Shown in pieces: positions 20,368-39,932 of a stretch of DNA of 40,000 nucleotides. The notes beneath the pieces are model-generated. The model was not told the origin of the DNA, ran no database searches, and worked only from the letters and a program-made list of their open reading frames with translations. Each line of letters starts with the position of its first letter. The first letter of the stretch is position 1. Position numbers and translations under genes: made by a program. This DNA is from an uncultured Bacteroidales bacterium (GTDB lineage: Bacteria; Bacteroidota; Bacteroidia; Bacteroidales; UBA932), in the NCBI GenBank assembly GCA_942492945.1, contig OW818649.1, positions 1,211,019 through 1,251,018 on the forward strand, written 5' to 3'.

Positions 20368-20374
20368 GTTATGC
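20368..20374 (+). other. first crossover core (attI-like junction), GTTATGC
   Basis: GTTATGCAA here is the exact reverse complement of TTGCATAAC at the end of cassette 1 (21639-21647). It lies 136 bp after the recombinase stop codon. Confidence 0.6.
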
Positions 20375-20416
20375 AAAAGCCAAAAAAAGGACACACTACC
20401 TATAAACTAAAAATAT

Positions 20417-21646
20417 ATGAAAAGGACATTTAATCTTATAGTGGGAGCATTAATCCTTGGGATTCTTGGACTGATAGCCTTCATCTTACTTTCAGATTTG
20501 AATGCTAAAGAATCTGGATTAGTGAGTTTGTTATTAACAGTATTATCCGTAATCGTTTCGTTTTTGATTTCTAATTACTATTCTCAAATTACACATAAGA
20601 AAGCGATCGAAGAAGTAAGAGAACAACATTTAGCCAATTTGAAAACCTATGCATTAAATGCTGCCGAGAAAGTTAGCAACCTTTCAAATGAATTAACCAG
20701 ACTTGCATACTATCTTCAAAATGACTTAGACGAAGAAACTGAAGAAAATAGAGAAATGCTCAATCATTCATTGACAGAAAGAATTGAAAGTGCAATACAT
20801 ATAATTAATACTTTAAAATCAGTAAATGACACATCATTAAGTGACTGGCGCGGCGTGATTGGAGAAGAATTGAACGAACAATTAGAAGAGAAAATTGAAA
20901 GAGAAAATGAATTAAAGTCATTAATTGAAAGAGTAGAGGCTTTAGTTATAGAGAATAAAAACACAATACCAAATCAGAAATTCTATGGTGGAGGATATCC
21001 TGAGGAATTAAAAACCATCAGAAAAGAATTGTCTTATGTGGCAAGTTCATTAGGAGGTAAAATAATTAGACCGAAATCATCAAAACCTGTTAAAGAAGAT
21101 ATAGAAAGTAAATGTCCAGAATGTGGAGAAGTAATCACTTACAAACAAAGACCTTTAATTAAGAGTTTTAAACCAGTAAAATGCACGAAATGTGGTAAAA
21201 GAGCTGCATCAAGATATTATAGTGATAAAGGATTTGTTCTTGAACCTGAGATTATTAAAGAGGAAGATATTGAATGTCCTTGGTGTGGTGATGATATTGA
21301 GTTTAATATAAGCTCTGTTCCATATACAACCACCACAGGGGAATGCCCTTCATGTTCTGGTCAAATTAAAGTTATAAGAAATATTGATGGTTTTAAAGTC
21401 AATAAATTTGGTCAAAATCCAGAGAAGATAAAAGAGACGCTTTCAGATGAACTTATTGATAAGATTGATGCATTATTGCCTGAACAACCTTGGCCAACAG
21501 GACAACATAAAGTTATTGCACAAGAATTAGGTGTCAGTGTTCATTTAGTTTCAAAAGCAATTACTAAATTAATAGAACAAGGGAAATATTATCCTCAAGT
21601 TGGAGGAATTGTTTATACAGAAAAAAGGGATAAGACCATTGCATAA
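20417..21646 (+). CDS. cassette 1 ORF: membrane-anchored coiled-coil protein with two zinc-ribbon-like CxxC pairs and a C-terminal HTH-like segment
   Basis: 409 aa with two N-terminal TM helices and an acidic coiled-coil region. The CxxC pairs are CPECG...CTKCG and CPWCG...CPSCS. The C-terminal segment VIAQELGVSVHLVSKAITKLIEQG is HTH-like. Confidence 0.65.
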   Translation: MKRTFNLIVGALILGILGLIAFILLSDLNAKESGLVSLLLTVLSVIVSFLISNYYSQITHKKAIEEVREQHLANLKTYALNAAEKVSNLSNELTRLAYYLQNDLDEETEENREMLNHSLTERIESAIHIINTLKSVNDTSLSDWRGVIGEELNEQLEEKIERENELKSLIERVEALVIENKNTIPNQKFYGGGYPEELKTIRKELSYVASSLGGKIIRPKSSKPVKEDIESKCPECGEVITYKQRPLIKSFKPVKCTKCGKRAASRYYSDKGFVLEPEIIKEEDIECPWCGDDIEFNISSVPYTTTTGECPSCSGQIKVIRNIDGFKVNKFGQNPEKIKETLSDELIDKIDALLPEQPWPTGQHKVIAQELGVSVHLVSKAITKLIEQGKYYPQVGGIVYTEKRDKTIA

Positions 21647-21770
21647 CACGCAATTTACGTAAGCCGGGCGATGTGGGTAATTTAAACATTTGTACATTTA
21701 CTCAAATTGGTAACGGTTAGACAGGTGCAAGCTTCGAAATCCCGGCCTCCGCATATTGCAATCGTTATGG
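21641..21770 (+). repeat. attC-like site of cassette 1 (130 bp)
   Basis: The left core GCATAAC overlaps the stop codon and the right core is GTTATGG. The arms cataacacgcaat..aagccggg and cccggcc..attgcaatcgttatg pair imperfectly. Confidence 0.75.
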
Positions 21771-22052
21771 GTCAGTTGCGAAGGAATTAGTTGTTTAAGA
21801 TGCAATTGTTCAATTGTTTGCAGAAAGTGCTGATGATAAACAATTCAGAGAATAACGGCTAAGAAGAAAGGAGCAGAAGGAGGGAAGAAGTATATATTAT
21901 TAAAGAGACATTAAATTGTAGCTTACAGGAAAAGAGATAATAGACGAAACATACCATTATGAAAGCAACCGCACCCATAACACAAGGTACAGTTCAGCCA
22001 CCCGGCTGCATAAGGTTTATAGGAATAGGGTGGCCGCCCCGTACCCACGTCC
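21764..22052 (+). repeat. ORF-less 289-bp cassette, copy A
   Basis: It starts GTTATGGGT and ends at the next G|TT. It contains no ORF of 60 aa or more. It carries a 30-nt polypurine tract (21861-21890) and its own 85-bp attC. Confidence 0.8.
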
Positions 22053-22059
22053 GTTATGG
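21975..22059 (+). repeat. attC-like site of ORF-less cassette copy A (85 bp)
   Basis: ACCCATAAC is the reverse complement of the cassette start GTTATGGGT. The inner stem is gccaccc/gggtggc. The right core is GTTATGG. Confidence 0.75.
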
Positions 22060-22341
22060 GTCAGTTGCGAAGGAATTAGTTGTTTAAGATGCAATTGTTC
22101 AATTGTTTGCAGAAAGTGCTAATGATAAACAATTCAGAGAATAACGGCTAAGAAGAAAGGAGCAGAAGGAGGGAAGAAGTATATATTATTAAAGAGACAT
22201 TAAATTGTAGCTTACAGGAAAAGAGATAATAGACAAAACATACCATTATGAAAGCAACCGCACCCATAACACAAGGTACAGTTCAGCCACCCGGCTGCAT
22301 AAGGTTTATAGGAATAGGGTGGCCGCCCCGTACCCACGTCC
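22053..22341 (+). repeat. ORF-less 289-bp cassette, copy B (tandem duplicate)
   Basis: Near-identical to copy A by eye (2 substitutions noted) and the same 289-bp length. Confidence 0.8.
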
Positions 22342-22348
22342 GTTATAG
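22264..22348 (+). repeat. attC-like site of ORF-less cassette copy B (85 bp)
   Basis: Same as the copy A site, but the right core is GTTATAG, supplied by the next cassette. Confidence 0.75.
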
Positions 22349-22401
22349 GCAACCATGTTGAAAATCCAGCGAGACTTACAAACTCGAAAACTTTTTAGAA
22401 T

Positions 22402-22836
22402 ATGGAAGAATTCGAAAAGATATTATTGAAAAGCGATTGTCAAAGAAGACTTGAAAAACCAAAGAAAACAATTGAAGAAATTGAAACTCTTATCAGATTT
22501 CAGCTTCCGTTAGACTACAAGAAATTTCTAGAAAATTATGTATGCTTTGAAGGTTCAATAGGTAAAGAATATTTACAACTTTGGAGACTTGAAGACCTTA
22601 CTAATTTGAATGAAAACTATGGAATTTTTGATAACCTAGAAAATACAATTGCAATTGGAGGAAACGGCAGTAGTGAATTCATTGCTATTGAAATAATAGA
22701 TAAAACCAATTATAGAATTGTACTTTCATCATTTATAGACTTAGACAAACAATATCACCTTGAAATAGGAACATCATTTTCAGATTTTCTAACTCGACTT
22801 GACAACGGGAAAGATTGGTTTGGAAATGATGATTGA
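22402..22836 (+). CDS. cassette ORF: SMI1/KNR4 (SUKH-1) family immunity-type protein
   Basis: 144 aa. IEEIETLIRFQLPLDYKKFLENY...IGGNGSSEFIAIE... matches the SUKH/SMI1_KNR4 pattern (LP.DY..FL, then IG.dGgG). No adjacent toxin gene. Confidence 0.7.
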   Translation: MEEFEKILLKSDCQRRLEKPKKTIEEIETLIRFQLPLDYKKFLENYVCFEGSIGKEYLQLWRLEDLTNLNENYGIFDNLENTIAIGGNGSSEFIAIEIIDKTNYRIVLSSFIDLDKQYHLEIGTSFSDFLTRLDNGKDWFGNDD

Positions 22837-22880
22837 TAACATGAAACGGAATATTTTTTGACGACATATAAAACGGCAGC

Positions 22881-23013
22881 CTATAACACGTGGTTAAAAA
22901 TATTGGGGCTGATGCGCAGATAAGCAGGTTTTTAGTACTTTAGTAAAAGTTTAACGTGGAACAGATGTTCGGTTCTTAACGCCCCAACATTTCCAACCAC
23001 GGAAACGTTATGT
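22881..23013 (+). repeat. attC-like site (133 bp)
   Basis: GCCTATAAC is the reverse complement of the cassette start GTTATAGGC (22342). The arms are acgtggttaaaaatattgggg and ccccaacatttccaaccacg. The right core is GTTATGT. Confidence 0.8.
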
Positions 23014-23065
23014 GAAATAAGAAAAAACAACATATATTCAATTTTATTTTCTATCAGTAAAAATT

Positions 23066-23491
23066 ATGGAAACAATTACTCAAATAATTTTATCTTTTCT
23101 TGGTATAATTGGAATTGGTGGTATAGTAACTGCTATTTTCAATAAATCCAAAGAAATTGAATTTCAAAAGCTTGAACAAAAACAACGTCGTTATAAATCA
23201 ATGCTTCTATATATGGATGTTTATTTTGTACCAGAAAACATCAAATATCTATCAAGTCGACAGCCTGATATTCATTCAGCTAAAGATGTCATTGAATACT
23301 TGAAAGCAGAGTATCATGAAATGCTTCTGTATGCCTCAAAAAAAGTAATTCTTTCAGCAAAGAGATTTATTGAAAATCCAAGTAGAGATCTTTTTTTGGA
23401 AGTAATATTGGCTATGAGAGGAGATTTATGGATTAAGAAGTCTGACTTAGACTTAAAAGAACTTGTACTAACTGAAAATAAACAAGAATAA
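23066..23491 (+). CDS. cassette ORF: hypothetical protein with one N-terminal TM helix
   Basis: 141 aa. TM segment IILSFLGIIGIGGIVTAIF. No family recognised. Confidence 0.6.
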   Translation: METITQIILSFLGIIGIGGIVTAIFNKSKEIEFQKLEQKQRRYKSMLLYMDVYFVPENIKYLSSRQPDIHSAKDVIEYLKAEYHEMLLYASKKVILSAKRFIENPSRDLFLEVILAMRGDLWIKKSDLDLKELVLTENKQE

Positions 23492-23510
23492 ATATGAGTT
23501 TTCTTACATC

Positions 23511-23569
23511 ACATAACAGCAGATATGCGGATATGCTTCGCACATCGCATAATCCGCAAATCGTTATAA
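23511..23569 (+). repeat. attC-like site (59 bp)
   Basis: TCACATAAC is the reverse complement of the cassette start GTTATGTGA (23007). The stem is gcggat/atccgc. The right core is GTTATAA. Confidence 0.8.
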
Positions 23570-23591
23570 ACCATTAATTTTGATATACATA

Positions 23592-24221
23592 ATGCGACAA
23601 GCAGTTATTATTTTATTATTATTTATTATTACAATTGATTGTAAAGCTCAGCCTATAGAAATTTTAGAAGAGACAATTTATGAATTGAAATCACCTGATT
23701 TGAATAATTGCCTCGAAAGATATAACCTCATTGCAAATGAAGTGGAATTAATTTACAATCAGGACACTACAAAAATTGAGTTATACCTTCAAATTGAAGA
23801 AAATGGATTAATAAGTAGAGTTAAAAATTTTGATAATGTTCCTGAAGATTTTTATGCATCATATAATGTAATCCGAAGTAAAATAGGTAAAATCATATAT
23901 ATAAGCGAGTATCCACATAGTGGTTCAGGTGATTGGGATCTTGGTTATGAAAACTATTTTGACGAAAAAGGAAATTTAATTGCATTTATTAGAAAATGTG
24001 GCTTTTTCAATGGGGTCTGTGCAGAAGTTATACACGAAAAATCAGAATATTTCTATAATCTGAAACATGTTTTGGTTAAAAAGACTTATGAGATAACTGA
24101 TGAGAATAAAAAACCTTTGAATTATAAAAATTGTATTTTTAATTATCGATACGATTATAAGCAATACCTGACTATAGAAGATTATTTAGAAAAATATAAA
24201 TTTACTAATAACGGTTTATAA
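23592..24221 (+). CDS. cassette ORF: hypothetical secreted protein
   Basis: Signal peptide MRQAVIILLLFIITIDCKAQP. Start moved from TTG 23580 to ATG 23592. The stop codon lies inside the attC left core. Confidence 0.6.
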   Translation: MRQAVIILLLFIITIDCKAQPIEILEETIYELKSPDLNNCLERYNLIANEVELIYNQDTTKIELYLQIEENGLISRVKNFDNVPEDFYASYNVIRSKIGKIIYISEYPHSGSGDWDLGYENYFDEKGNLIAFIRKCGFFNGVCAEVIHEKSEYFYNLKHVLVKKTYEITDENKKPLNYKNCIFNYRYDYKQYLTIEDYLEKYKFTNNGL

Positions 24222-24274
24222 CAGCAGCTTGCCTTCATGCTAGCGCACGAACTGCAAGCCGCAAAACGTTATGG
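24216..24274 (+). repeat. attC-like site (59 bp)
   Basis: GGTTTATAAC is the reverse complement of the cassette start GTTATAAACC (23563). The stem is gcagcttgc/gcaagccgc. The right core is GTTATGG. Confidence 0.8.
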
Positions 24275-24556
24275 GTCAGTTGCGAAGGAATTAGTTGTTT
24301 AAGATGCAATTGTTCAATTGTTTGCAGAAAGTGCTAATGATAAACAATTCAGAGAATAACGGCTAAGAAGAAAGGGGAAGAAGGAGGAAAGAAGTATATA
24401 TTATTAAAGAGACATTAAATTGTAGCTTACAGGAAAAGAGATAATAGACAAAACATACCATTATGAAAGCAACCGCACCCATAACACAAGGTACAGTTCA
24501 GCCACCCGGCTGCATAAGGTTTATAGGAATAGGGTGGCCGCCCCGTACCCACGTCC
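24268..24556 (+). repeat. ORF-less 289-bp cassette, copy C
   Basis: This third copy has the same length and boundaries, with a few substitutions in the polypurine tract. Confidence 0.8.
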
Positions 24557-24563
24557 GTTAGCG
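24479..24563 (+). repeat. attC-like site of ORF-less cassette copy C (85 bp)
   Basis: The left core is CCATAAC and the right core is GTTAGCG, supplied by the next cassette. Confidence 0.75.
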
Positions 24564-24603
24564 GTAATTAGAGATCACGACATAAAACAAAATAAATTAA
24601 TAA

Positions 24604-24864
24604 ATGGAACTACCTAGAGACAGGGTAATAATAGCAGGTGACGTGAGCGATAGAGACGGAATTGGAGTTGAAATTTATCGTGACAACAAGTTAGTAATCG
24701 AAATATTTCGTGATGACACAAAACGGACAAGAACTGTAACACTTTTTCAAAAAGACTTATCATTAGACTTACTCGAAGAAAGTATTGAGATTTTCAAAAA
24801 AGAAGTTCCTTGGGACTTTATTGAATATGATAATAATAATTTAGACAAGAATTTGAGAAAATAA
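24604..24864 (+). CDS. cassette ORF: hypothetical 86-aa acidic protein (copy 1 of 2)
   Basis: The protein is identical to the ORF at 39606-39866. No family recognised. Confidence 0.6.
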   Translation: MELPRDRVIIAGDVSDRDGIGVEIYRDNKLVIEIFRDDTKRTRTVTLFQKDLSLDLLEESIEIFKKEVPWDFIEYDNNNLDKNLRK

Positions 24865-24872
24865 TTAACTAC

Positions 24873-24930
24873 CGCTAACAGCAACTTGCATTCACGCTAA
24901 CGCGCAAACTGCAAGCCGCAACCGTTAGCA
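24873..24930 (+). repeat. attC-like site (58 bp)
   Basis: ACCGCTAAC is the reverse complement of the cassette start GTTAGCGGT (24557). The stem is gcaacttgca/tgcaagccgc. The right core is GTTAGCA. Confidence 0.8.
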
Positions 24931-24954: not shown

Positions 24955-25860
24955 ATGAGAGTATTAATAATTCTAATAACAACGCTTTGGATTTTTGGCT
25001 GTTCTAATACTGACAACTCTAAAGGTTCAAAAAATGACAGGTTGAAAACAATCTATAAAAACACTTTACAGATTAATACAGACGTAGTGAATGAAAACGT
25101 ACAATACATTGGCTTTATTGATAAATTTTATTTTTCCAATGAAAATGAAGCATACATTGAACTTTACTTCATTAAAAACGAGATAAATTCTGACGAGTAC
25201 AACAAAATTGTAAAACTTACTGACTCTTTAATTTATGAGGACGATGAAAATAGTAGACACAGATTTCCAGAAAGTTTAGCACCAAAATATTTTGACCTAA
25301 GAGGACTTTCAAAACTTAAAATCTATGACAACAACAATAAATTTGTTTCTAATGCTGACTTTCTTCGTGTAGAGTATTTAAATCAGAATATATCACCTGT
25401 TTTTATAGCTGTGTACAAGACAGAAAAAAAAATCAAAGCTGATAGTTACTATGGGATAAGTAATTTTAGTGGAACATTTGAGACAATGAAATATTTAATT
25501 ACAAAAGATACCATTTTGACACAAAATCTTCTGACAAAACTTAACGAAAAAAGACCTTACTACGGACTTGAAAACAATGGGACTCACTTGCATTTTTCCA
25601 ACAGCGATACAGTTTTATCTGTTATAAATTCTGAGAATTTTGCCTACATAGTCTTGACAACAAGCAATGATTTTAAGGTTCTATATAAAAGTCTTGACTT
25701 TGAAAACGTTTCAGACGTAAAGATTATTCCCCTATCTAATAATAAGTTTCCATACATATTAACGCGGAATGTTAAACCCGAAACTGATGTAATGTGGGAT
25801 AACTTACTGTATTACGATGGGAAAAAATATACAACTACGAACAGACAACGAATTGAATAG
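24955..25860 (+). CDS. cassette ORF: hypothetical lipoprotein
   Basis: 301 aa with a lipobox (LWIFGCSN). No family recognised. Confidence 0.6.
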   Translation: MRVLIILITTLWIFGCSNTDNSKGSKNDRLKTIYKNTLQINTDVVNENVQYIGFIDKFYFSNENEAYIELYFIKNEINSDEYNKIVKLTDSLIYEDDENSRHRFPESLAPKYFDLRGLSKLKIYDNNNKFVSNADFLRVEYLNQNISPVFIAVYKTEKKIKADSYYGISNFSGTFETMKYLITKDTILTQNLLTKLNEKRPYYGLENNGTHLHFSNSDTVLSVINSENFAYIVLTTSNDFKVLYKSLDFENVSDVKIIPLSNNKFPYILTRNVKPETDVMWDNLLYYDGKKYTTTNRQRIE

Positions 25861-25866: not shown

Positions 25867-25918
25867 TGCTAACAAAGGCTATATGCCATAAACGGCACAT
25901 AGCCCCAAATCGTTATGG
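25867..25918 (+). repeat. attC-like site (52 bp)
   Basis: GGGTGCTAAC is the reverse complement of the cassette start GTTAGCACCC (24924). The stem is ggctatatgcc/ggcacatagcc. The right core is GTTATGG. Confidence 0.8.
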
Positions 25919-25963: not shown

Positions 25964-26275
25964 ATGAAAAAATATGCAATTTTAACTTTTACTGCCGAAG
26001 ATATGACTTACGGATCAGCTCCAAGTAAATCTGGTCCAGCAAGATTAAATCAAGGAGAATTTAATTCTTCACATAGACGGTCTGATAAAACCGTTGAAGA
26101 TTTAATACGAAATGAAGATGGGAGCATTAGACAATTCACTTCTCAAGTGAGCGCTTTGAATTACTGTGTCGATAATGGTTGGAATCTCGAGCAAACTTTA
26201 TTTGAACCTCATGATGGTTATAATGCAAGAGAACCTCTCAGTAACTATATATTTATATTGTCGAGAGAAAAATAA
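25964..26275 (+). CDS. cassette ORF: hypothetical 103-aa protein
   Basis: It is the only ORF in its cassette and is co-oriented with the array. No family recognised. Confidence 0.55.
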   Translation: MKKYAILTFTAEDMTYGSAPSKSGPARLNQGEFNSSHRRSDKTVEDLIRNEDGSIRQFTSQVSALNYCVDNGWNLEQTLFEPHDGYNAREPLSNYIFILSREK

Positions 26276-26300: not shown

Positions 26301-26355
26301 CCATAACACGCGTTAAATCCCATTGAAACGGGATTTAGCCGCTGAACCGTTGGCG
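26301..26355 (+). repeat. attC-like site (55 bp)
   Basis: GCCCATAAC is the reverse complement of the cassette start GTTATGGGC (25912). The stem is taaatccc/gggattta. The right core is GTTGGCG. Confidence 0.8.
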
Positions 26356-26406
26356 GCAAGGCTGAGAGACAGTGCAAACTTGAACCAATAGACATAAAAA
26401 CTATAT

Positions 26407-27258
26407 ATGGAAATGCTAGTTGAGACAGCAGTAATAAATGGGATAAAGTATATAAAGGACGAAAACGAACATGTCTTTCTTGTACCTGTTACAAAGTTAG
26501 GTGACTTTCGTGCCATTGACTTACCAAGTCAATCAAGTTTACATGTAACGGGAATAGACCTTAATGACTTATCTCTTTATTTTTCAGTTGTTCACGGTGG
26601 CAATGGCTATGCATCAATATTTATCCTGTTTTCAATTCAATGTAACGATTATTCGGAAGGTAGTAGGCGAATTCACGAGACAGTTAATGCCATTGCAACA
26701 ATTGCATCCCCAAATTACCTTGACACTCCACGAATTGGGGCTGACCAGAACGACGATAACATGTGGAAACATTACGTTACTTACAGTTTTGATGAAGAAT
26801 TGTCCTGCAAAATAATTGTAAGAGAACTGGCAGAACAGATAATTTATGCATTGACAAATGCTAAACCAAGTATTCAAGCATTCCTTTGTCATTCTTCTGA
26901 AGATAAGCATATTGTAGAGCAATTTGCTTATAGACTTCGTTCAACAAAAAGCTATGTATGGTTTGACAAATGGGAAATTAAAGTTGGAGATAGTATTGTT
27001 GAAAAAATAAATGAAGGATTAGAGAAAATGACTCACTTGATTATTTTTTTATCAAAATCATCTGTTAATAAGCCTTGGGTGAAAAAAGAATTATCATCAG
27101 CATTAATGAGAAAACTAGAAGACAACTCTGTTAGGGTAATGCCGATAAAAATTAATGAATGTGATATTCCTGTAATAATAAAAGACATTAAATATGCTGA
27201 TTGCACGGAAGATTTTGAGAGTGGATTTAGTCAACTAATTGCTGACATCACAAACTAA
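26407..27258 (+). CDS. cassette ORF: TIR-domain protein with an unknown N-terminal domain
   Basis: The C-terminal roughly 125 aa read AFLCHSSEDKHIVEQFAYRLRS...VWFDKWEIKVGDSI...IIFLSKSSVNKPWVKKELSSAL, a bacterial TIR pattern that includes the conserved Glu (codon 27088-27090). The N-terminal roughly 155 aa were not recognised. Confidence 0.75.
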   Translation: MEMLVETAVINGIKYIKDENEHVFLVPVTKLGDFRAIDLPSQSSLHVTGIDLNDLSLYFSVVHGGNGYASIFILFSIQCNDYSEGSRRIHETVNAIATIASPNYLDTPRIGADQNDDNMWKHYVTYSFDEELSCKIIVRELAEQIIYALTNAKPSIQAFLCHSSEDKHIVEQFAYRLRSTKSYVWFDKWEIKVGDSIVEKINEGLEKMTHLIIFLSKSSVNKPWVKKELSSALMRKLEDNSVRVMPIKINECDIPVIIKDIKYADCTEDFESGFSQLIADITN

Positions 27259-27307
27259 ACATTATAGAACACGAATGACTATTAAACATCAGACTAACAA
27301 TAGCCCA

Positions 27308-27423
27308 GCCGCCAACACACAATATAAAACAGTTGGGGTTCACTGGTTTGCGAGGGTTTGGTTCTCGCGCCAGCATTCTTGTCGGTGGACAAGAACGCAG
27401 CCCGAAAACCCAACCGTTTCATA
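27308..27423 (+). repeat. attC-like site of the TIR cassette, 5' part (interrupted by a group II intron)
   Basis: GCCGCCAAC (27308-27316) is the reverse complement of the cassette start GTTGGCGGC (26349). The left arm tataaaacagttggggtt matches the reverse complement of aaacccaaccgtttcata (27406-27423). Confidence 0.6.
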
Positions 27424-29388: not shown

Positions 29389-29408
29389 GCCATGTTAAAA
29401 CAAACCCC

Positions 29409-31522: not shown

Positions 31523-31531
31523 AATACGACC

Positions 31532-31662
31532 GCCTAACATGGGTTTTGCGTTAGTGGGCGGACAGTGCGACTAGTAACATTTGAGCAATTAATAAACGTT
31601 GGTGCTGCCAGACAGTTTTCGGTTTCAAAAGCCCACCAACGCAAAGCCCGAAACCGTTAGCG
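31532..31662 (+). repeat. attC-like site (131 bp)
   Basis: CCGCCTAAC is the reverse complement of the cassette start GTTAGGCGG (30110). The arms are atgggttttgcgttagtgggc and gcccaccaacgcaaagccc. The right core is GTTAGCG. Confidence 0.8.
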
Positions 31663-31704
31663 GTTATGCTAAAAAAACGACACACAGTCAAACAACTATG
31701 ATAA

Positions 31705-32103
31705 ATGAAAATTGAATTTGACATACCTGATGAAAAAGTTCAAGACCTTAACATAAATGGCAGGTCTGAACTGACTCGACATTGTAAACAGTGGACCGAG
31801 GACATCATTGATGAAGCAACAAGGATTGAAGCTAGCAGAAATGATGGAACAAGTATTGAGATTACTGCTGCAATAATAAGTGAAGCAGCAACTTATTCTA
31901 AAAGATTTCCATTAAAAAAGAAAATAAAATGGTGGTTAAAAGCAATCCAAGTAACAGCTTTTATTTCTTCTTTATTAGCAGGAAGTCTACTTGATATAGA
32001 AAAATTCAAAGAGACAAGCCATGTTATTTGGTTTATCGCAACTTTATTTGTAGCAGTTGCAACCACTGTTTATTTAACTTTTAACTCTGAGAAAAATGGA
32101 TAA
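31705..32103 (+). CDS. cassette ORF (gene 1 of a two-gene cassette): small protein with two C-terminal TM helices
   Basis: 132 aa with TM segments AIQVTAFISSLLAGSLL and VIWFIATLFVAVATTVYLTF. Its stop overlaps the start of the next ORF by 8 nt. Confidence 0.6.
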   Translation: MKIEFDIPDEKVQDLNINGRSELTRHCKQWTEDIIDEATRIEASRNDGTSIEITAAIISEAATYSKRFPLKKKIKWWLKAIQVTAFISSLLAGSLLDIEKFKETSHVIWFIATLFVAVATTVYLTFNSEKNG

Positions 32104-32824
32104 GAACTATATATATGAAAAGCTGACTCCATCAGCAAAAGAAGCATTGAATGAAACAATACAGGAGCTTCATGACTTGTTGATTTCGAGAGCGAATTCA
32201 ATAGCTCAAAAGGGACAAACTGCTGACAAAGAAATCTCATTAAGGGACATAATTGAAGCAAAAGAATCATTATTCAAAGCCAAATTGGATAAGGAAAAAT
32301 CTGACTATAGACGTAAAAGAATGATGACCCTCATTTCCTTAACTGGTGCCTTATATTCTATAATTGGAATATTTGTTTATATATATCAAAATCAAGATTT
32401 TGTATTAGAGAAAAATCTTGGACTTATAATCATACTAACTGGCATTATGACAATATTTGTGGGATTTGTTTATTTTCAATTATCTAGAAAATCAGATGAA
32501 AAGTCTAAAGATTTAGATATGGATTATAGCAGTTCTGACAGTGATTTCGATATAATAAAACGTTGGCAAATAATTGAAAAATTGGGAAGCAATTTAATGA
32601 GACAACGTGGATTTTCAAATAATGAATCAAAATCAATAAATGATATTTTAAAGTTTCTTTCATTTGAGCTAAAAGATGAAATGTTATACATTGAAATGAG
32701 AGAGCTTTTATCGATACGAAATAGAATTTTACATGAAGGTTATGAATTGACTCGAAATGAGAAACAATTATATTTAAATAAAGCCGAAAAGATAATTGAA
32801 TTACTCGAAAAACTAGAAAGATAA
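32096..32824 (+). CDS. cassette ORF (gene 2): membrane protein with a C-terminal HEPN-like RNxxxH motif
   Basis: 242 aa with two central TM helices. The C-terminal region reads ELLSIRNRILHEG (Rx4H at 32717-32734). Confidence 0.6.
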   Translation: MDKNYIYEKLTPSAKEALNETIQELHDLLISRANSIAQKGQTADKEISLRDIIEAKESLFKAKLDKEKSDYRRKRMMTLISLTGALYSIIGIFVYIYQNQDFVLEKNLGLIIILTGIMTIFVGFVYFQLSRKSDEKSKDLDMDYSSSDSDFDIIKRWQIIEKLGSNLMRQRGFSNNESKSINDILKFLSFELKDEMLYIEMRELLSIRNRILHEGYELTRNEKQLYLNKAEKIIELLEKLER

Positions 32825-32833
32825 AGCACAAAC

Positions 32834-32962
32834 CGCTAACACGCGGTATAGCCAATAAGGGTTTCAGAGGTATGCGAAGGGTTGTAGCCCACCTCAAAGT
32901 TCGTTGTAACTTGACAGGAAATCGCCCGCAATCCCTTACTGGCCATACCGCCACCGTTGAAG
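32834..32962 (+). repeat. attC-like site (129 bp)
   Basis: AACCGCTAAC is the reverse complement of the cassette start GTTAGCGGTT (31656). The arms are cgcggtatagccaataaggg and cccttactggccataccgcc. The right core is GTTGAAG. Confidence 0.8.
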
Positions 32963-33006
32963 GGCATTAAAACAAATATCATCTTATAAAACAACGTAAT
33001 AAAAGA

Positions 33007-33561
33007 ATGGAACAATCAAATAGATCTTTGGAAGAACTAAGAAAGAAGAAATGGTCCTATGTTTTTTTGCATGGCTCTGTTTATTGGGGATTACCTGTTG
33101 CAATTATTGCGTTTGTATTTAATAGCGACTTTGAAATTGAGAACATGCATATTTCAAGATTCATACTATTTGTAATAGTATTTATGATTACGGGAATATT
33201 CACAGGAATTATGCAATTTAAGCAAATAGAGAAGGTTCGTTTAAGGCAAAATGACAATGAGGAAATTACACAAGGAATTCAGATAATAAAATCCGGGAAC
33301 TTATGGAGTTATGAGAGTTTGAATATTTACATGGAGAATATTGAAACCCTACTCGTTCAAAATGAAAAATTCTGGTTTGAAGGGAATACATCTCCTGAAA
33401 GAATTAATGAATGTTTTAATGTAGTTTTGGAAGATTTTCAACAATTACAAAAAAACACTAGTTTTAATGAATTCACAAGAACCCTTGAAGTGAAAGTCCA
33501 GATATTTGATAATTCTGGGAGTAAGTTTCTTTTGTTTGAAAAAGTAATTAGTAAAAATTAA
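33007..33561 (+). CDS. cassette ORF: hypothetical protein with two TM helices
   Basis: 184 aa with TM segments VYWGLPVAIIAFVF and FILFVIVFMITGIFTGIMQF. No family recognised. Confidence 0.6.
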   Translation: MEQSNRSLEELRKKKWSYVFLHGSVYWGLPVAIIAFVFNSDFEIENMHISRFILFVIVFMITGIFTGIMQFKQIEKVRLRQNDNEEITQGIQIIKSGNLWSYESLNIYMENIETLLVQNEKFWFEGNTSPERINECFNVVLEDFQQLQKNTSFNEFTRTLEVKVQIFDNSGSKFLLFEKVISKN

Positions 33562-33565
33562 CGCC

Positions 33566-33627
33566 CTTCAACACAGGCTAAAAGTCAAGCGGGAAAACAC
33601 GCCAGCTTTTAGCCTGAAACGTTGTGT
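33566..33627 (+). repeat. attC-like site (62 bp)
   Basis: GCCCTTCAAC is the reverse complement of the cassette start GTTGAAGGGC (32956). The stem caggctaaaag/cttttagcctg is perfect. The right core is GTTGTGT. Confidence 0.85.
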
Positions 33628-33774
33628 TTCATGCTAAGAGAGACCGTGCAACAAATGCCAACGCACATTTGGCACATTTGCAAGCCCAAACCCACAAGCC
33701 GATGCTTCAGCTTGCAAAAGAGCCAAATTTTTGCCGACGCACTTCGCTGAGTTATAAAGAATAGAGTTTAAAAT

Positions 33775-36700
33775 ATGATAAAACTTAATTGGAATATATT
33801 TAAAGCAAAATTTGATGGACAAGAGACATCTATGTTCGAATTGTTAGCCTACCATCTATTTTGCGATGAATATAATATTCCAACTGGTATTTTTAGATTC
33901 AAAAACCAGACAGGAATAGAAACAGAACCAATTGAAAGAGATGGAGAATTGATTGGTTTTCAAGCGAAATTTTATGAATCAAAAGTTTCAGATAACAAGG
34001 ACGATATTATTGATTCCTTAAAAAAAGCAAAATCAAAAAATAAAGACTTAGATAAGATTCTTTTTTATCTAAATCAAGAGTTTTCAGAAAGTTCGAGTAA
34101 AGAAAAGAAAGACCCTAAAAACAAAATTGAAATTGAGGAAGAAGCTGAAAAATTAAATATTAAGTTAATATGGAAAGTCCAAAGTAATTTTGAGATTCAA
34201 CTTGCAAAACCCTCTATTTCATATTTAAGTGAGTACTTTTTTAGTAATGAAAAATCAAAAGTTGATTCACTAAAAGAGTTAGGTTTCCACGCCAAAAGTA
34301 TTTTAACTCCAATTCACTGTGATATAAAGTTTAAAGATGATAGAATTAAAATTGACAGGAACGAATTATTAATAGAAATAGAGTCTCAATTAAATACATC
34401 CAAATCAATTATAATTAGTGGAAATGGCGGGACTGGTAAAACAGCTTTAATAAAAGAACTTTATGATAGAAACAATGATAAGCCCTTTTATATTTTTAAA
34501 GCTAATGAATTTTTGGTAAAGCATATTAATGACTTATTTAAACCTTACTCTTTTACATTTGGGGACTTCTTGGATTGCCATGAAAATGAAACATCAAAGA
34601 TAGTTATAATTGATTCTGCCGAAAGATTATCTGAGATTGATAATAATGAACCGTTTAAAGAGTTTGTTGCTTCTTTAATTGAAAAAGATTGGTGCATTAT
34701 TTTCACAACAAGAAACATTTATCTTGATGATTTACGGTTTCAACTCATCCATGTATACAGATTGTCACCTAGGAATTTAAATTTAGAAAATTTGACGGAA
34801 GAAGAGCTAGATAAATTAGCTATAGATTATGGTTTTGTAATTCCTCCTGAAATAAGATTACGGCGGCTGATACGAAATCCCTTCTACCTAAATCAGTATT
34901 TGAATTTTTATTCTGTAGATAGTCAAAAGGCAAGCTATTCTGATTTCAAAACTAATCTGTGGAAAATTAAGATTCAAAATTCAACATACACAAAGAACAA
35001 TTTGCATATTGAAAGGGAAGAATGTTTTTTGTCTCTAGCAAATGACAGAAGCAAGAGTGGTAACTTCTATTCAAAAGGTGAAAGTTGTTCTCAGGAAGCC
35101 TTGTCTTTACTTCAACTTGAAGAAATTATTGAATATAGTTCATCAAATTCAGGATATTTCATTACTCATGACATATATGAGGAATGGGCTCTTGATTTAA
35201 TAATTGAAAAAAACTATCAAGAACATAAAGGAAATGTAGACCTGTTTTTTAAAGAACTTGGTACTTCGCTTTCAATTCGAAGAGCTTTTAGATTGTGGAT
35301 TACAAATACAATAATTATTAACCCGAATGATGTAGAAGAAATAATTGAAGAAGTAATCTATTCAAGTATTATTGATGCTTCATGGAAAGACGAAGTTTTA
35401 ATATCCATATTACTTTCAGAAATGTCTAATACTTTCTTTGAAGAAAGGAAAGTATTACTGTTCAAAGATGATTTCAAGCTTTTAAAAAGAATCATTTTCT
35501 TGTTAAGAACAGCTTGTAAGGAAGTTAATGAATCATTGATGAGGGTTTTAAAAGGTAATGATGAAGATATAAGTCCAGAATATATTTTTACAATACCCAA
35601 AGGTTCTGGGTGGTGTGCTATAATTAATTTGGTCTACAGTGAACTTGAATCTTTTAAAATTGAAGATGTGTCATTCTTAATTCCGTTGCTTAAAGAATGG
35701 AATGATGAATTTAAAACAGGTATTGTTACAAGAAGTTCAACTAAAATAGCTTTAAAGTTTTATGAGGATATTACTTCCGAAAAGGAAGCATATAGATATT
35801 CCGATTTATCAACAGACTTGGTGAAAATTATAATTCAAGGAGCTAATGAAGTCACAAAAGAATTACGCATAATATTTGAACAAGTAATTAAAAACAAGTG
35901 GTATAAGCATAGTTCACCCTATAACAAACTTTGTAAAGATATACTTACAAAGACTAATGAAAACATCCCAGTCATTAAAGCGTTGCCAATTGAAGTCATG
36001 AAACTAGCTGATTTATTCTGGTTTAATCATGATACTGAAGATGATAGGTTTGGCTACGGAGGGATTGATATGGAACAATATTATTCGTTGAATAAAAATG
36101 GCTTAGATTACTATCCTACAAGTGCTTTACAAACTCCTATTTACTGGTTACTTCGTTTCTCTCCAAAGGATACTTTTGATTTCATCATAAGTTTTACAAA
36201 TAAAGCTGTAGAAGCTTTTTCTAAATCAAAATATGGTGATACTGTTGAATTAATTGATATTCATCTTGATAATGGTAAAATACAAAAACAATTTGTAAGT
36301 GATGCAATATGGTCAATGTATAGAGGAACAGGTTCACCAGTGACCCCAAAAGTATTACAGTGTATTCATATGGCACTAGAAAAATACTTATTAGAAACTG
36401 CTAAATTTGATGATAATGGCAATCTTTCAGGTTGGTTTAAATATTTAATACGGAACTCCAAATCTGCTTCAATAACAGCTGTTGTTGCCAGTGTTGTAAT
36501 TGCGAATCATGATAAGTATTATGATACAGCCGAAATACTTTTTAAAACACTTCAATTATTCTCGTATGATATGCAACGTGTATTATCAGAGCATATCGCC
36601 AAGTTTATGTATGGTATGGGCTATGGCTTAAATCAGAGGCACAAAACTTTCGCTGATGAAAGAGTTAAAACTTTAGAAGACCCTCAGAGGAAAGTATCAT

Positions 36701-38484
36701 TAGAAAATATTGCTTTAAACTACCAATTTTTTAAGACAGAGGGAATCGAAGACGAAGAAGTCGAAAGAAGGCAAAATTCGATATGGACAATCATCGATGA
36801 ACATAATAAGCAGAAATTAAATAATACTCAAAAACTTCTAATTGCTAGGATTGATAGGCGAAAGATGAAGCCTAAAATTGAACAAAAAGATGATAAATTA
36901 TTGATTGATTTTAATCCAGAAATTGAACCAGAGTTAAAGAAGTATAGTGAAGAAAGTCAAGCAGAGTATTCTGATTATTTTAAGTTCTCAGCATTAAGTG
37001 CATGGAGTAGAAATAAGTTCGACCAGAAACAGGATATTTCACAGTATACCCAATATGAAAATAATCCAAAATTGGTTTTTAAAGAAATTAATGAGTTATT
37101 GAATCCTGAAATTGCTAAAAACAATCATTTTGATTTTTCAACAGCAGCTTTTGCAAGCTATGTACTTCTTAAAGAACATTCCAACGTTTTAGATGCAAAA
37201 GAACTTGAATTGTGTCGGGATATAATTCATGATTTTGCAATTGCTCCGTTAAAAGAAGGTTATGGATATCAAATATCAGATGGTGTTGAAGTAGCAATAA
37301 ATTCTATTCCTTTGTTATATAGTATATTCCCTAATGCTAAATTGGAGTATAACACACTTTTACTTTTCATTTTATTTGATGAGTATCCAATAGGTGAGTA
37401 TAAGCGTGTTTGTGATTATTCAATAGAAGCAATTGTTAATTCCCTTTGGGATAAGTCAGAGGAAGATGCATTAAAAATTATTATTGCTTTTCTGAAAACT
37501 AAGCCCTTACTAAATGAATTTATCGAAACAATGGAAGGTGATGATAATAATCCTTACATTCATAGAAAACCGCAAGCCTATATAATTGAAAAGTTTTCTG
37601 AAAAATATGAAAAAGAATTAGAAAGCATATTCAAAGTTGATTTTGCAAAGTTAAACTTAGCTGATTTTGATATAAATTCCTTTAAGCTAATTGATTTAGA
37701 TACAATAATCCAATTAGTTCCGAATGACTCAAAGAACAAGTTTATCAATGAATTAATTTTAAAGGTACTACCTACTCTTTGTGAGCAATTATTAAAGGAA
37801 GAAAGGGAAAGTAACTTAATTAGGCTAAGATTTAGTTTCTTCAAGAAAATATGCTCCTTCATTTTAAATTTAGATTCTAAAAATATACCTCTCTACATTT
37901 CACCTTTCGCTGATAATCTTGCTTCAAGTGAAGAAACTAAATACTTATTAGAGGAATTTATTTCAACAGAATGTAGAATAAAAAGCTATGAGCAGTTTTG
38001 GTTAGTTTGGGATGAGTTTTATAATTCAATATTTAAAACCGTAAAAACAGGTGGTTATCACACAAAAGAAATAGTTCATAGCTATTTGCTTGCTTGGCCT
38101 TGGTGGGGGAAAGAAGATAAGCAATGGTATTCACTTAAATCTAGAGACAAGAGATTCTATAAGAAAATTGTGTCAGAATTAGGTGATAATGTTTTTGTTT
38201 TAGATTCAATATCTCAAATTCTTAATCAGATTGGAAGTGAGTTTATAAATGATGGTATTATTTGGATAAGTGATATGCTAGGAAAACATAAAAATCTATG
38301 GAGTGATAAATTGGGAATAAATACTATTTATTATTTGGAGATACTAATTCGCAGGTTTTTATATATCAATAGGGCAAAAGTTAGAAGAGAAAAAGACCTA
38401 AAAGAACGTGTTCTAACAATTCTTCATTTCTTAATTGAGAAAAGTTCTGTTAATGCATATCTTCTTCGAGAAGAAATCTTATAA
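33775..38484 (+). CDS. cassette ORF: 1569-aa P-loop NTPase with an N-terminal putative effector domain and a very long helical C-terminal region
   Basis: Walker A is ISGNGGTGKTALIKEL (GNGGTGKT at 34420-34443). Walker B is KIVIIDSAE (34597-34623). The roughly 200 aa before the P-loop include ..ETEPIERDGELIGFQAKFY.., a possible but weak PD-(D/E)xK-like motif. More than 1200 aa of unrecognised, helix-prone sequence follow. Confidence 0.75.
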   Translation: MIKLNWNIFKAKFDGQETSMFELLAYHLFCDEYNIPTGIFRFKNQTGIETEPIERDGELIGFQAKFYESKVSDNKDDIIDSLKKAKSKNKDLDKILFYLNQEFSESSSKEKKDPKNKIEIEEEAEKLNIKLIWKVQSNFEIQLAKPSISYLSEYFFSNEKSKVDSLKELGFHAKSILTPIHCDIKFKDDRIKIDRNELLIEIESQLNTSKSIIISGNGGTGKTALIKELYDRNNDKPFYIFKANEFLVKHINDLFKPYSFTFGDFLDCHENETSKIVIIDSAERLSEIDNNEPFKEFVASLIEKDWCIIFTTRNIYLDDLRFQLIHVYRLSPRNLNLENLTEEELDKLAIDYGFVIPPEIRLRRLIRNPFYLNQYLNFYSVDSQKASYSDFKTNLWKIKIQNSTYTKNNLHIEREECFLSLANDRSKSGNFYSKGESCSQEALSLLQLEEIIEYSSSNSGYFITHDIYEEWALDLIIEKNYQEHKGNVDLFFKELGTSLSIRRAFRLWITNTIIINPNDVEEIIEEVIYSSIIDASWKDEVLISILLSEMSNTFFEERKVLLFKDDFKLLKRIIFLLRTACKEVNESLMRVLKGNDEDISPEYIFTIPKGSGWCAIINLVYSELESFKIEDVSFLIPLLKEWNDEFKTGIVTRSSTKIALKFYEDITSEKEAYRYSDLSTDLVKIIIQGANEVTKELRIIFEQVIKNKWYKHSSPYNKLCKDILTKTNENIPVIKALPIEVMKLADLFWFNHDTEDDRFGYGGIDMEQYYSLNKNGLDYYPTSALQTPIYWLLRFSPKDTFDFIISFTNKAVEAFSKSKYGDTVELIDIHLDNGKIQKQFVSDAIWSMYRGTGSPVTPKVLQCIHMALEKYLLETAKFDDNGNLSGWFKYLIRNSKSASITAVVASVVIANHDKYYDTAEILFKTLQLFSYDMQRVLSEHIAKFMYGMGYGLNQRHKTFADERVKTLEDPQRKVSLENIALNYQFFKTEGIEDEEVERRQNSIWTIIDEHNKQKLNNTQKLLIARIDRRKMKPKIEQKDDKLLIDFNPEIEPELKKYSEESQAEYSDYFKFSALSAWSRNKFDQKQDISQYTQYENNPKLVFKEINELLNPEIAKNNHFDFSTAAFASYVLLKEHSNVLDAKELELCRDIIHDFAIAPLKEGYGYQISDGVEVAINSIPLLYSIFPNAKLEYNTLLLFILFDEYPIGEYKRVCDYSIEAIVNSLWDKSEEDALKIIIAFLKTKPLLNEFIETMEGDDNNPYIHRKPQAYIIEKFSEKYEKELESIFKVDFAKLNLADFDINSFKLIDLDTIIQLVPNDSKNKFINELILKVLPTLCEQLLKEERESNLIRLRFSFFKKICSFILNLDSKNIPLYISPFADNLASSEETKYLLEEFISTECRIKSYEQFWLVWDEFYNSIFKTVKTGGYHTKEIVHSYLLAWPWWGKEDKQWYSLKSRDKRFYKKIVSELGDNVFVLDSISQILNQIGSEFINDGIIWISDMLGKHKNLWSDKLGINTIYYLEILIRRFLYINRAKVRREKDLKERVLTILHFLIEKSSVNAYLLREEIL

Positions 38485-38641
38485 AAACTAAATGGAGTAC
38501 GAATTATGAATATAAAACAGCCACCCCTTCGCACCCATACACATTGCCAAGTCGCTCAAAAGAGCCAACACACAGACCTAAACTTGTCAAAGAGTATGGT
38601 TGCCCGAACGCACGAACTGACGGAGGAAATAAAGCACGAAA

Positions 38642-38773
38642 ACACAACATCGTGTATAGTTCATTTGGCGGATGGTGTTAATTTTAAGGGTGTTGCATTT
38701 AATAAACGGTGTTGCGGTTTGATAGGTTGGTGCTTCGATTCGCCAAACGACACCATACACATAACCGTTATGC
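38642..38773 (+). repeat. attC-like site (132 bp)
   Basis: AAACACAAC is the reverse complement of the cassette start GTTGTGTTT (33621). The arms are atcgtgtatag..tttggcg and cgccaaacg..catacacat. The right core is GTTATGC. Confidence 0.7.
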
Positions 38774-38801
38774 ACCATATTATTTAACGAAACGAGAAAC
38801 A

Positions 38802-39419
38802 ATGAAAAAACTATTCTTTCTTTTCTTTATCCTTTACTCAAGCATAGTGAATGCACAAGGATTATTAGGAACTCCTAAAAGTTTGATATTAGTTTATAAT
38901 TATCCGAAAAATAACTTTTATATTGAGATTTACGGTGTCGATAAAAGAACAACTGAAAGAAAAAATGTTTTCAATATCGATAATAAAACAGTTCAAATTT
39001 TAGTACTTAATAAAGCGAAATTTCTTACTGATACGCTCATCGAATTCTCGAACATTGACTTGATGAAAATTTATATTAATTGGGAAATAAATTATATAGA
39101 AAATAATTTATATAAAAACACGAACAATAAATATGAATTTCTTAAATCAAAAAAAGGGAGAGACATTGCATTCTGGACGTATGAAATGCCAACAGGTGAT
39201 CCAGAAATTGTGACTGGTTCCACTCGTACAACACCAACTTTGAAACAAATGTTTGTTATAACAAGGTCAAAAGATTATATAATAGGAATAAACTCGCCTT
39301 TGTTTGAAAAAGAAAGGTATAATGAAATTAAAGGCTACTTGATTACTAACATTGACGGTCTGGTTGAATCAGAGAAAGAAATTGATGTCGATGAATTAAA
39401 CAAAAAATTGAATAAATAA
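38802..39419 (+). CDS. cassette ORF: hypothetical secreted protein
   Basis: Signal peptide MKKLFFLFFILYSSIVNAQG. Start moved from 38709, because the upstream part of the track ORF lies inside the preceding attC. Confidence 0.6.
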   Translation: MKKLFFLFFILYSSIVNAQGLLGTPKSLILVYNYPKNNFYIEIYGVDKRTTERKNVFNIDNKTVQILVLNKAKFLTDTLIEFSNIDLMKIYINWEINYIENNLYKNTNNKYEFLKSKKGRDIAFWTYEMPTGDPEIVTGSTRTTPTLKQMFVITRSKDYIIGINSPLFEKERYNEIKGYLITNIDGLVESEKEIDVDELNKKLNK

Positions 39420-39429
39420 AAAATACGGT

Positions 39430-39565
39430 GTATAACACGTGGCAAAAAATACTGGGGTTAGACCTTACAGATGCGGGGGTTTTATTACTTTTAACTAAGT
39501 TTCTAACGGCGGATAAATGTTCTGTTTCTAACTCCCCAACATTTCTTGCCACGGAAACGTTAGCG
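39430..39565 (+). repeat. attC-like site (136 bp)
   Basis: GGTGTATAAC differs by 1 mismatch from the reverse complement of the cassette start GTTATGCACC (38767). The arms are acgtggcaaaaaatactgggg and ccccaacatttcttgccacg. This site is homologous to the attC at 22881-23013. The right core is GTTAGCG. Confidence 0.8.
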
Positions 39566-39605
39566 GTAATTAGAGATCACGACATAAAACAAAATAAATT
39601 AATAA

Positions 39606-39866
39606 ATGGAACTACCTAGAGACAGGGTAATAATAGCAGGTGACGTGAGCGATAGAGACGGAATTGGAGTTGAAATTTATCGTGACAACAAGTTAGTAAT
39701 CGAAATATTTCGTGATGACACAAAACGGACAAGAACTGTAACACTTTTTCAAAAAGACTTATCATTAGACTTACTCGAAGAAAGTATTGAGATTTTCAAA
39801 AAAGAAGTTCCTTGGGACTTTATTGAATATGATAATAATAATTTAGACAAGAATTTGAGAAAATAA
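39606..39866 (+). CDS. cassette ORF: hypothetical 86-aa acidic protein (copy 2 of 2)
   Basis: The protein is identical to 24604-24864. The whole 367-bp cassette (39559-39925) appears to repeat 24557-24923. Confidence 0.6.
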   Translation: MELPRDRVIIAGDVSDRDGIGVEIYRDNKLVIEIFRDDTKRTRTVTLFQKDLSLDLLEESIEIFKKEVPWDFIEYDNNNLDKNLRK

Positions 39867-39874
39867 TTAACTAC

Positions 39875-39932
39875 CGCTAACAGCAACTTGCATTCACGCT
39901 AACGCGCAAACTGCAAGCCGCAACCGTTACCA
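39875..39932 (+). repeat. attC-like site (58 bp)
   Basis: Same as 24873-24930, except the right core is GTTACCA, supplied by a different downstream cassette that runs off the window. Confidence 0.8.

Follow-up and report, generated by a model that had tools for sequence, protein, structure and literature searches.

How did a Bacteroidales chromosome come to hold 18 cassettes in a single orientation, each closed by its own imperfect palindrome, beside a recombinase gene that does not encode an integron integrase? The question arose in a stretch of 40,000 nucleotides from an uncultured Bacteroidales bacterium (assembly GCA_942492945.1, contig OW818649.1, positions 1,211,019 to 1,251,018), called here the window, in which the array occupies positions 20368-39932. 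We consider it likely that the locus is a sedentary chromosomal cassette platform, integron-like in its working and of a different recombinase lineage. A first-pass annotation, made from the letters of the DNA, had described an integron-like array of units that reinsert between the G and the TT of a GTT core, and the core complementarity, the breakpoints at cores and the turnover at an attI-like site reported below bear this out. The term "integron-like" is right; "integron" in the strict sense is not.

Measured from the R'' 7-mer to the R' 7-mer, the sites at the cassette ends were 52-136 nt long (n = 18), with one site carrying R'' and R' cores per cassette (18/18). The first-pass annotation had listed 18 imperfect palindromes of 52-136 bp bounded by AAC and GTT, and all 18 were found where it had placed them. 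Its count of 17 distinct cassettes had to be changed to 18 cassettes of 15 distinct sequences, but the complementarity that it had seen in them held. It had also placed every palindrome after a co-oriented open reading frame (ORF) or ORF pair; one orientation was found throughout the array, which holds about 20 co-oriented ORFs, but three cassettes, all of a 289-bp type, have no ORF. The AT-rich cassettes and GC-richer sites that it had described were reflected in guanine-plus-cytosine (GC) contents of 46.7% for the sites, 30.8% for the cassette bodies and 43.2% for the upstream chromosome.

For each cassette, the first 10 nt (GTT + 7) were set against the reverse-complemented 10 nt that close with AAC in the cassette's own 3' site. 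The match was 10/10 in 8 of the 18 cassettes and 9/10 in the other 10, the single mismatch being the outermost base in nine of these and internal only in cassette 17; an exact own-end reverse complement of at least 9 nt stands at the start of 17/18 cassettes. With GTT/AAC excluded, a cassette's own ends matched at 6.4/7 positions and the two ends of one in-array site at 2.9/7, no better than chance, and none of 100000 partner permutations equalled the observed total of own-end matches. The same comparison was made for 90 consecutive site pairs in other scanned and metagenome loci, window excluded. There the own-end match was 5.64/7, perfect in 38/90, against 2.73/7 for the ends of the same site and 2.63/7 for random pairs. 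The complementarity claimed by the first-pass annotation was therefore far above chance both in the window and in 90 independent pairs elsewhere, and the three core pairs that it had quoted were exact.

The boundaries suggested by the cores were also those of recurring cassettes. A 289-bp cassette occurs three times (starting at 21764, 22053 and 24268; 284-287 of 289 positions identical) and a 367-bp cassette twice (24557 and 39559; 367/367 identical), and for both types the identity ends inside CGTTA on either side, in line with the earlier claim that two types recur with their bounds at the cores.

An attI-like region was recognised by its conservation among loci at 20233-20370 (+ strand), where an imperfect palindrome (~20297-20358) is followed by ...ACATAAACAA/GTT, the slash marking the insertion point at 20368. 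This sequence is conserved among loci L081-L091, L101 and L106 up to AACAA/GTT and then diverges. Seven loci carry essentially one attI-like sequence (...ACATAAACAA/GTT) and seven different first cassettes that begin at the GTT, and two of the loci (L082 and L083) have identical recombinase proteins and different first cassettes. Close relatives of the recombinase (85-90% identical) lie in the same chromosomal neighbourhood, downstream of mutL, a rhomboid gene and ispF. Where the recombinases are 70-75% identical, ...ATAAACAA/GTT is retained together with an upstream imperfect palindrome of other sequence and the same fold. The fold of the attI palindrome is thus kept in three sequence types (window 20297-20358; L082 10890-10950; L103 10395-10450), in all of which the bottom strand is the more stable one; the palindrome might be bound by the recombinase as a folded structure, or might terminate transcription of the recombinase gene. 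Three attI-like ...ATAAACAA/GTT sequences with the upstream palindrome were seen within 4 kb of one contig (L113 6765, 8264 and 10193; L114 902, 2401 and 4330), an arrangement that suggests several tandem recombinase/attI modules, as far as the sequence can tell.

Comparison with other genomes and metagenomes, a check that the first-pass annotation had proposed, placed the breakpoints of both turnover and exchange at GTT cores. Cassette 15 (665 bp) was found in the metagenome contig L097 at 99.2% identity, while the recombinase of that contig is only 71% identical to that of the window. The shared homology starts at GTT and stops just short of the next GTT.

The palindromes might instead be static intergenic elements, such as terminators or repetitive extragenic palindrome (REP)-like repeats in a variable island, with the complementarity as a by-product of repeat families; like terminators, they follow ORFs and are GC-richer than their surroundings. 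This reading is barely credible. The complementarity belongs to each cassette alone, and the two ends of a given site do not share it. Identical cassettes turn up in other surroundings and in other genomes, their breakpoints falling at the cores, and a terminator scan, itself called uninformative, picked up none of the palindromes. The duplicated cassettes, the attI turnover, the exchange with L097 and the complementarity in the 90 pairs already contradict it.

Turning to the sites themselves, the top strand has the form R''(nnnYAAC)-A(+0-2 nt)-stem...stem-(4-6, rarely 8 nt)-C-GTT(Rnnn), in which AACA and CGTT are invariant among the 18 sites. The two spacers measure 1-3 and 4-6 (8) nt, and pairing is ungapped and without a bulge over the first 12-14 stem positions. 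We folded both strands of each site, as the first-pass annotation had suggested, and the bottom strand was the more stable in 17/18, because most non-Watson-Crick positions are A·C on the top strand and G·T on the bottom strand. The folded bottom strand shows an R box of 6-8 bp with a conserved closing G·T pair and a one-sided loop of ~3-4 nt (TTT, GTT or TTTC) on the 5' arm, followed by a long uninterrupted stem.

A covariance model (R1) was built from twelve trimmed sites, with mini-sites of fixed 3' arm as its seed. MAFFT alignments of whole or trimmed sites had put the stems out of register and were rejected; only the fixed-3'-arm mini-sites stayed in register. In the seed alignment 92.6% of cells were paired and 11/11 stem pairs had changed on both sides, and neither any of 500 shuffles nor any slid register came near the observed pairing. 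Run on the 40 kb, R1 recovered every one of the seven short sites, two of which lay outside the seed, as bottom-strand matches (E-values 2e-7 to 0.04), and nothing significant elsewhere in the window; it cannot span the 85-136 nt sites and recognised only half-sites there. The ~130-nt sites form conserved families shared between classes, rather like the Vibrio cholerae repeats, and site 13 (31534-31659) has 95% identity to one from a Sphingobacteriales metagenome-assembled genome (MAG; L038 11790-11915), where the cassette is unrelated.

The probable cassette recombinase is a Xer-type tyrosine recombinase of 283 aa, encoded at 19381-20232 (+ strand) and assigned by Pfam, NCBIfam and alignments; its ORF and the first cassette share a strand, and 135 bp separate the end of the former from the start of the latter. 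Pfam reported Phage_integrase (1.5e-35) and Phage_int_SAM_4. The best NCBIfam model was XerA_Arch, "site-specific tyrosine recombinase/integron integrase", at 197 bits (cut-off 220), a name that PGAP also gives to the homologues, while the IntI model TIGR02249 reached 169 bits (cut-off 265) in a two-piece match. Among solved structures, XerA 4A8E (1.2e-35) and 5HXY (1.1e-31) both ranked above VchIntIA 2A3V. The family alignment shows no variation at the catalytic R, K, H, R, H and Y positions, and the catalytic set is complete. However, ~42 residues are missing relative to VchIntIA and IntI1, exactly at the IntI-specific domain: recombinase residues 179-221 (43 aa) align opposite VchIntIA 176-260 (85 aa), and gaps of 29 and 14 residues fall at IntI1 ~206-250. 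Since it has no IntI-specific domain, the recombinase is not an IntI. That domain, which surrounds patch III, is regarded as required for the recombination of attC hairpins. A sigma-70 consensus scan identified no promoter in the window, Bacteroidetes promoters lying outside the models of the scan.

To what extent recombinase and sites occur together was examined in 38 loci among the matches listed, with recombinases 42-63% identical to that of the window. The Bacteroidota genomes that supplied them belong to Flavobacteriia, Cytophagia, Sphingobacteriia, Chitinophagia and Bacteroidales; one further locus is from Ignavibacteriota. A site scan with AAC...GTT and a 12-nt stem alone was too noisy, with 25 matches in the array against ~10 in shuffles, and was discarded; with the invariant AACA and CGTT added, the shuffles fell to 0.5-1.4. 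Downstream of the recombinase (248 kb scanned) 104 sites lay on the same strand and 14 on the opposite strand; upstream (328 kb scanned) the numbers were 13 and 11. At least one downstream same-strand site was present in 32/38 loci, and most sites outside the window belonged to the ~130-nt class. On 1.02 Mb, R1 gave 20 matches, 19 of them on the bottom strand and, with coordinates compared by eye, downstream of a recombinase match. The same arrangement of recombinase plus sites was found on plasmids of Chryseobacterium and other Bacteroidota. No Bacteroides was among the matches listed in the genome scan for the recombinase, and no named Bacteroides among the protein-search matches from an animal-gut Bacteroidales homologue. 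A recombinase match labelled "Bacteroidaceae" (L076) was set aside as a 576-aa two-domain protein at a contig end.

This linkage across the phylum bears on the reading of the locus as an ordinary integron array without its integrase (a cluster of attC sites lacking integron integrases, CALIN), built by a classical IntI that acts from elsewhere or has been lost, with the Xer-type gene as a bystander. In its favour, the sites resemble attC in their AAC/GTT cores, their palindromic body, the complementarity private to each cassette and the bias towards the bottom strand, and an IntI gene could lie outside the 40-kb window. We nevertheless regard this origin as improbable. The recombinase, the attI-like site and the array are adjacent in the 32 of 38 listed loci, in several classes and also on plasmids, and cassettes turn over at the attI-like sequence that follows immediately on the recombinase gene. 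The geometry is also unlike that of class 1 attC sites: those of R46 have AATTC/ATTTC spacers (5 and 6 nt) and an extra C in L'', and R1 run on R46 matched none of its attC sites. Rfam has no attC family. Finally, the 2016 IntegronFinder survey found only In0 and almost no IntI in Bacteroidetes (PMC9024848). As that survey was nearly empty although Flavobacterium psychrophilum (L009) carries sites of the present kind, the standard attC model probably misses them.

The stems at the other loci showed the same strand bias as in the window. Wobble pairs possible only on the bottom strand outnumbered those possible only on the top strand by 151:41 in the part of the stem used for selection and by 126:33 in the part outside it, and the stem arms formed 15.6/20 Watson-Crick pairs with their own partner and 9.2/20 when swapped. 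These results bear on a further reading, in which a housekeeping Xer/dif system moves the modules by way of double-stranded sites, as with the pdif modules on Acinetobacter plasmids, and folded single strands are uninvolved. Xer enzymes use one 28-bp dif site per replicon, and pdif modules are bounded by 28-bp XerC-spacer-XerD sites in alternating orientation. The recombinase is indeed closest to XerA, XerC and XerD, with the same length and domain layout as archaeal XerA and bacterial XerC/XerD, and the R''/R' duplex forms a short Xer-like half-site. But the sites of the window are hairpins of 52-136 nt in one orientation, not 28-bp XerC/XerD sites that alternate, and the recombinase of the window, unlike the Xer chromosome-dimer resolvases, goes together with an attI and whole arrays of long hairpins. 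A double-stranded site would explain neither the 3.7-fold excess of bottom-strand-only G·T pairs nor the compensatory changes along a stem of ~20 bp. We judge this reading very improbable.

For the cassette platform that we favour, the following mechanism is proposed. Promoterless cassettes would gather in one orientation downstream of the attI-like site, directly upstream of which the Xer-type recombinase (19381-20232) is encoded. Recombination between the AAC/GTT cores of the sites flanking a cassette would release a circle, and the site of that circle would be completed by the cassette's own first bases, which would explain why 9-10 nt of complementarity are private to each cassette. Recombination of the circle's site with attI would then insert the cassette at the first position. 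The substrate would probably be the folded bottom strand, as in integrons. We infer that the recombinase is the catalyst, the circle the intermediate and single-stranded DNA the form that is recombined.

Several points weigh against this reading. The missing IntI domain would imply another mode of hairpin recognition, or that another enzyme acts on the sites. The presumed link between recombinase and sites is drawn from genomic evidence. The crossover point can be resolved only to within (C)GTTA, the shared cassette 15 differs by one base at its right junction in L097, and the tandem cassettes 2 and 3 could also stem from slippage. Since the register of the seed alignment was set by hand, its pairing leans towards structure; likewise, the counts at other loci lean towards the architecture of the window, because both the scan and R1 were designed from it.

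Measured against known systems, the array shares much with integrons. Integron attC sites have the cores R'' RYYYAAC and R' GTTRRRY, and the integrase gene is divergent from the array, with the promoter Pc reading into the cassettes. The cassettes of the window are, as in integrons, in one orientation, mostly promoterless, independently mobile and bounded at RYYYAAC/GTTRRRY-like cores, each with one 3' imperfect palindrome; crossover is at GTT, and R'' pairs with the cassette's own start. The attI adjoins the recombinase gene and takes up new cassettes between the G and the TT. Further likenesses are the bias towards folding of the bottom strand, the presence of cassettes that have no ORF and a site that holds a group II intron. 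In contrast to integrons, the IntI-specific domain is missing from the recombinase, whose score stays under the IntI cut-off; the recombinase gene is co-oriented with the array instead of divergent, and attI follows its stop codon. The spacers measure 1-3 and 4-6 nt instead of ~5 and 6, the first 12-14 stem pairs have no extrahelical base, and the core complementarity reaches 9-10 nt.

The rAID-1 arrays are the other close comparison. In them, an XerD-like recombinase precedes a set of co-oriented, low-GC genes between which lie "repetitive intergenic sequences reminiscent of integrons". They were delimited by a 5' recombinase with an identity of 44% or more to B. fragilis BF9343_RS08045 and at least two co-directional downstream genes with GC ≤41%; their cargo is dominated by orphan immunity genes (Ross et al. 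2019, bioRxiv 10.1101/471110). Polyimmunity loci also adjoin XerC/D (Zhang et al. 2012, PMC3482391), and a 2025 preprint still treats the biogenesis of rAID arrays as unresolved (PMC12247911). The array of the window likewise has co-directional downstream genes (~20 ORFs), a GC content within that limit (30.8%) and a SUKH immunity gene, and a link to rAID-1 is plausible. However, this gene, in cassette 4, is the only recognisable immunity gene among the ~20 ORFs, and Avs4 and a TIR protein point to phage defence. In the literature searched, which did not extend to subscription journals, no attC-level description of rAID or other Bacteroidota arrays was found, and the accounts of rAID-1 and polyimmunity loci consulted specify neither a site structure nor a crossover point. 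Relative to that literature, the site architecture, the private complementarity with its crossover point, the attI, and the link to a Xer-type recombinase free of the IntI domain across the phylum are new.

We lean towards a wider proposition, that these loci belong to a second, IntI-independent integron lineage that is widespread in Bacteroidota on chromosomes and plasmids. In it, a XerA/XerD-like enzyme without the IntI domain would use attC-like hairpins of its own geometry, and the lineage would account for the biogenesis of the rAID/polyimmunity arrays and be a reservoir of anti-phage functions and maybe the original context of tet(X)-type genes later found in Acinetobacter and Enterobacterales with a truncated recombinase gene. 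The locus and its relatives carry the full genomic footprint of integron-type capture with an IntI-domain-free recombinase, in a phylum regarded as nearly integron-free, and suggest in concrete terms how the "recombinase-associated" arrays of defence and immunity genes in Bacteroidota could arise. If true, this would widen the definition of the integron and the reach required of detection tools, and would explain how the abundant rAID/polyimmunity arrays of gut Bacteroidales are assembled. It would also reveal a large unexplored pool of mobile defence genes, such as a complete Avs4 in one cassette, and a simple test bed for a minimal Xer-type enzyme that acts on folded single-stranded DNA.

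Two plasmids gave further observations. On the Chryseobacterium sp. plasmid L117 (NZ_CP041688), positions 8803-18800 hold a recombinase gene, ATATAAACAA/GTT and small co-oriented genes with sites, and the interior of the array contains an element of the insertion sequence family IS110 and a group II intron; these insertions echo the IS1111-attC elements and IIC-attC introns of classical integrons. On the Acinetobacter indicus plasmid p80-1-2-tetX3 (L116, 4019-6190), a shortened homologue of the recombinase gene (truncated; 47.8% identity) is followed at once, in the same orientation, by tet(X3). After tet(X3) stands what seems to be the 5' half of a ~130-nt-class site (CTACTAAC-A-AGCAGTTTTGC...), cut by the next element. 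Thus tet(X) may have begun as a cassette of such an array.

Many contigs end a few hundred bases after the recombinase gene (L002, L007, L008, L011, L016, L018, L024, L030, L046, L048, L081, L089 and others). Such ends are expected if the repeated sites break short-read assemblies, so that the arrays are probably under-represented in MAGs.

The cargo of the array in the window is accessory and defence-related. Besides Avs4, it includes a TIR and a SUKH protein, one of each, and many products whose function is unassigned; scans with Pfam and NCBIfam gave no family match for most of the other cassette proteins. Anti-phage defence cargo is also borne by Vibrio integron arrays (bioRxiv 10.1101/2024.07.02.601686). 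Cassette 16 (33621-38766) is a single 5.1-kb cassette with a complete Avs4 (AVAST type 4) anti-phage STAND nuclease of 1569 aa (33775-38484), which scored 1985 bits with NCBIfam (cut-off 1500) and was matched at full length by the PADLOC Avs4 model. Long non-coding stretches (33621-33774 and 38485-38641) lie on either side of the ORF, and the site is at 38642-38773. Cassette 11 (26349-29381) encodes a TIR-domain protein at 26407-27258 (Pfam TIR_2, 4.5e-27) that matched PDC-S66 and ThsB-like models in PADLOC. Cassette 4 (22342-23006; site 22881-23013) encodes the SUKH/SMI1_KNR4 immunity-type protein at 22402-22836 (Pfam SMI1_KNR4, 4.6e-8).

The remaining cassettes, all on the + strand, are as follows. 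Cassette 1 (20368-21763) holds an ORF at 20417-21646 for a 409-aa protein with coiled-coil/transmembrane segments and zinc ribbons, and its site is at 21641-21770. Cassettes 2 and 3 (21764-22341; sites 21975-22059 and 22264-22348) are the tandem ORF-less 289-bp copies; the third copy, cassette 7, begins at 24268 and shares 24268-24923 with cassette 8 (sites 24479-24563 and 24873-24930, respectively), the first 367-bp copy, which begins at 24557 and has its ORF at 24604-24864. The ORF-less cassette, for which Rfam gave no match at E up to 1, could bear a promoter or a small RNA, and the first cassettes of two relatives (L082 10960-11222; L103 from 10463) open with its motif GTTnATGGGTCAGTTGCGAA. 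Cassettes 5 and 6 (23007-24267) have ORFs at 23066-23491 and 23580-24221 and short sites at 23511-23569 and 24216-24274, found by R1 with E-values of 3e-4 and 2e-7. Between 24924 and 26348, cassette 9 encodes a lipoprotein-like protein (24955-25860; site 25867-25918) and cassette 10 has an ORF at 25964-26275 (site 26301-26355).

Three cassettes lie within 29382-32955: cassette 12 (ORF 29411-29978; site 29987-30116), cassette 13 (ORFs 30130-30630 and 30512-31522; site 31532-31662) and cassette 14 (ORFs 31705-32103 and 32096-32824; site 32834-32962). Cassette 15 (32956-33620), also present in L097, encodes a membrane protein at 33007-33561 and has its site at 33566-33627. The last stretch, 38767-39925, holds cassette 17 (ORF ~38803-39419; site 39430-39565) and cassette 18, the second 367-bp copy, which begins at 39559 (site 39875-39932). 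A 19th cassette starts at 39926 and continues beyond the window.

Site 11 is split by a group II intron at 27424-29372 (+ strand), which leaves the site as 27310-27423 plus 29373-29388. The intron starts with GTGTG and was recognised by Rfam on the + strand (RF01999, 92 bits; RF00029, 65 bits), and its reverse transcriptase/maturase ORF (28023-29273) by Pfam, with RVT_1 and GIIM and the endonuclease domain absent, and by NCBIfam (TIGR04416, 413 bits). Its insertion point is on the top strand, where the 3' stem arm of the site meets the spacer. For group IIC-attC introns the target is the bottom strand close to the 5' end of attC, and they run against the direction of cassette transcription (PMC3001079). 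The intron of the window resembles them in being small, endonuclease-free and located in a cassette site just past a stem-loop, but differs in lying on the top strand, co-oriented with the cassette and near the 3' end of the site.

Upstream of the array, positions 1-13000 are ordinary chromosome of ~43% GC; GC drops from ~14000, and from ~16000 the window is AT-rich, with nearly all long ORFs on the + strand. Compared with close relatives, in which ispF lies within ~1 kb of the recombinase gene, the region 13755-19380 contains ~4.5 kb of extra sequence, with a tRNA gene (15470-15543), three unknown ORFs and a 505-aa thioredoxin-fold protein.

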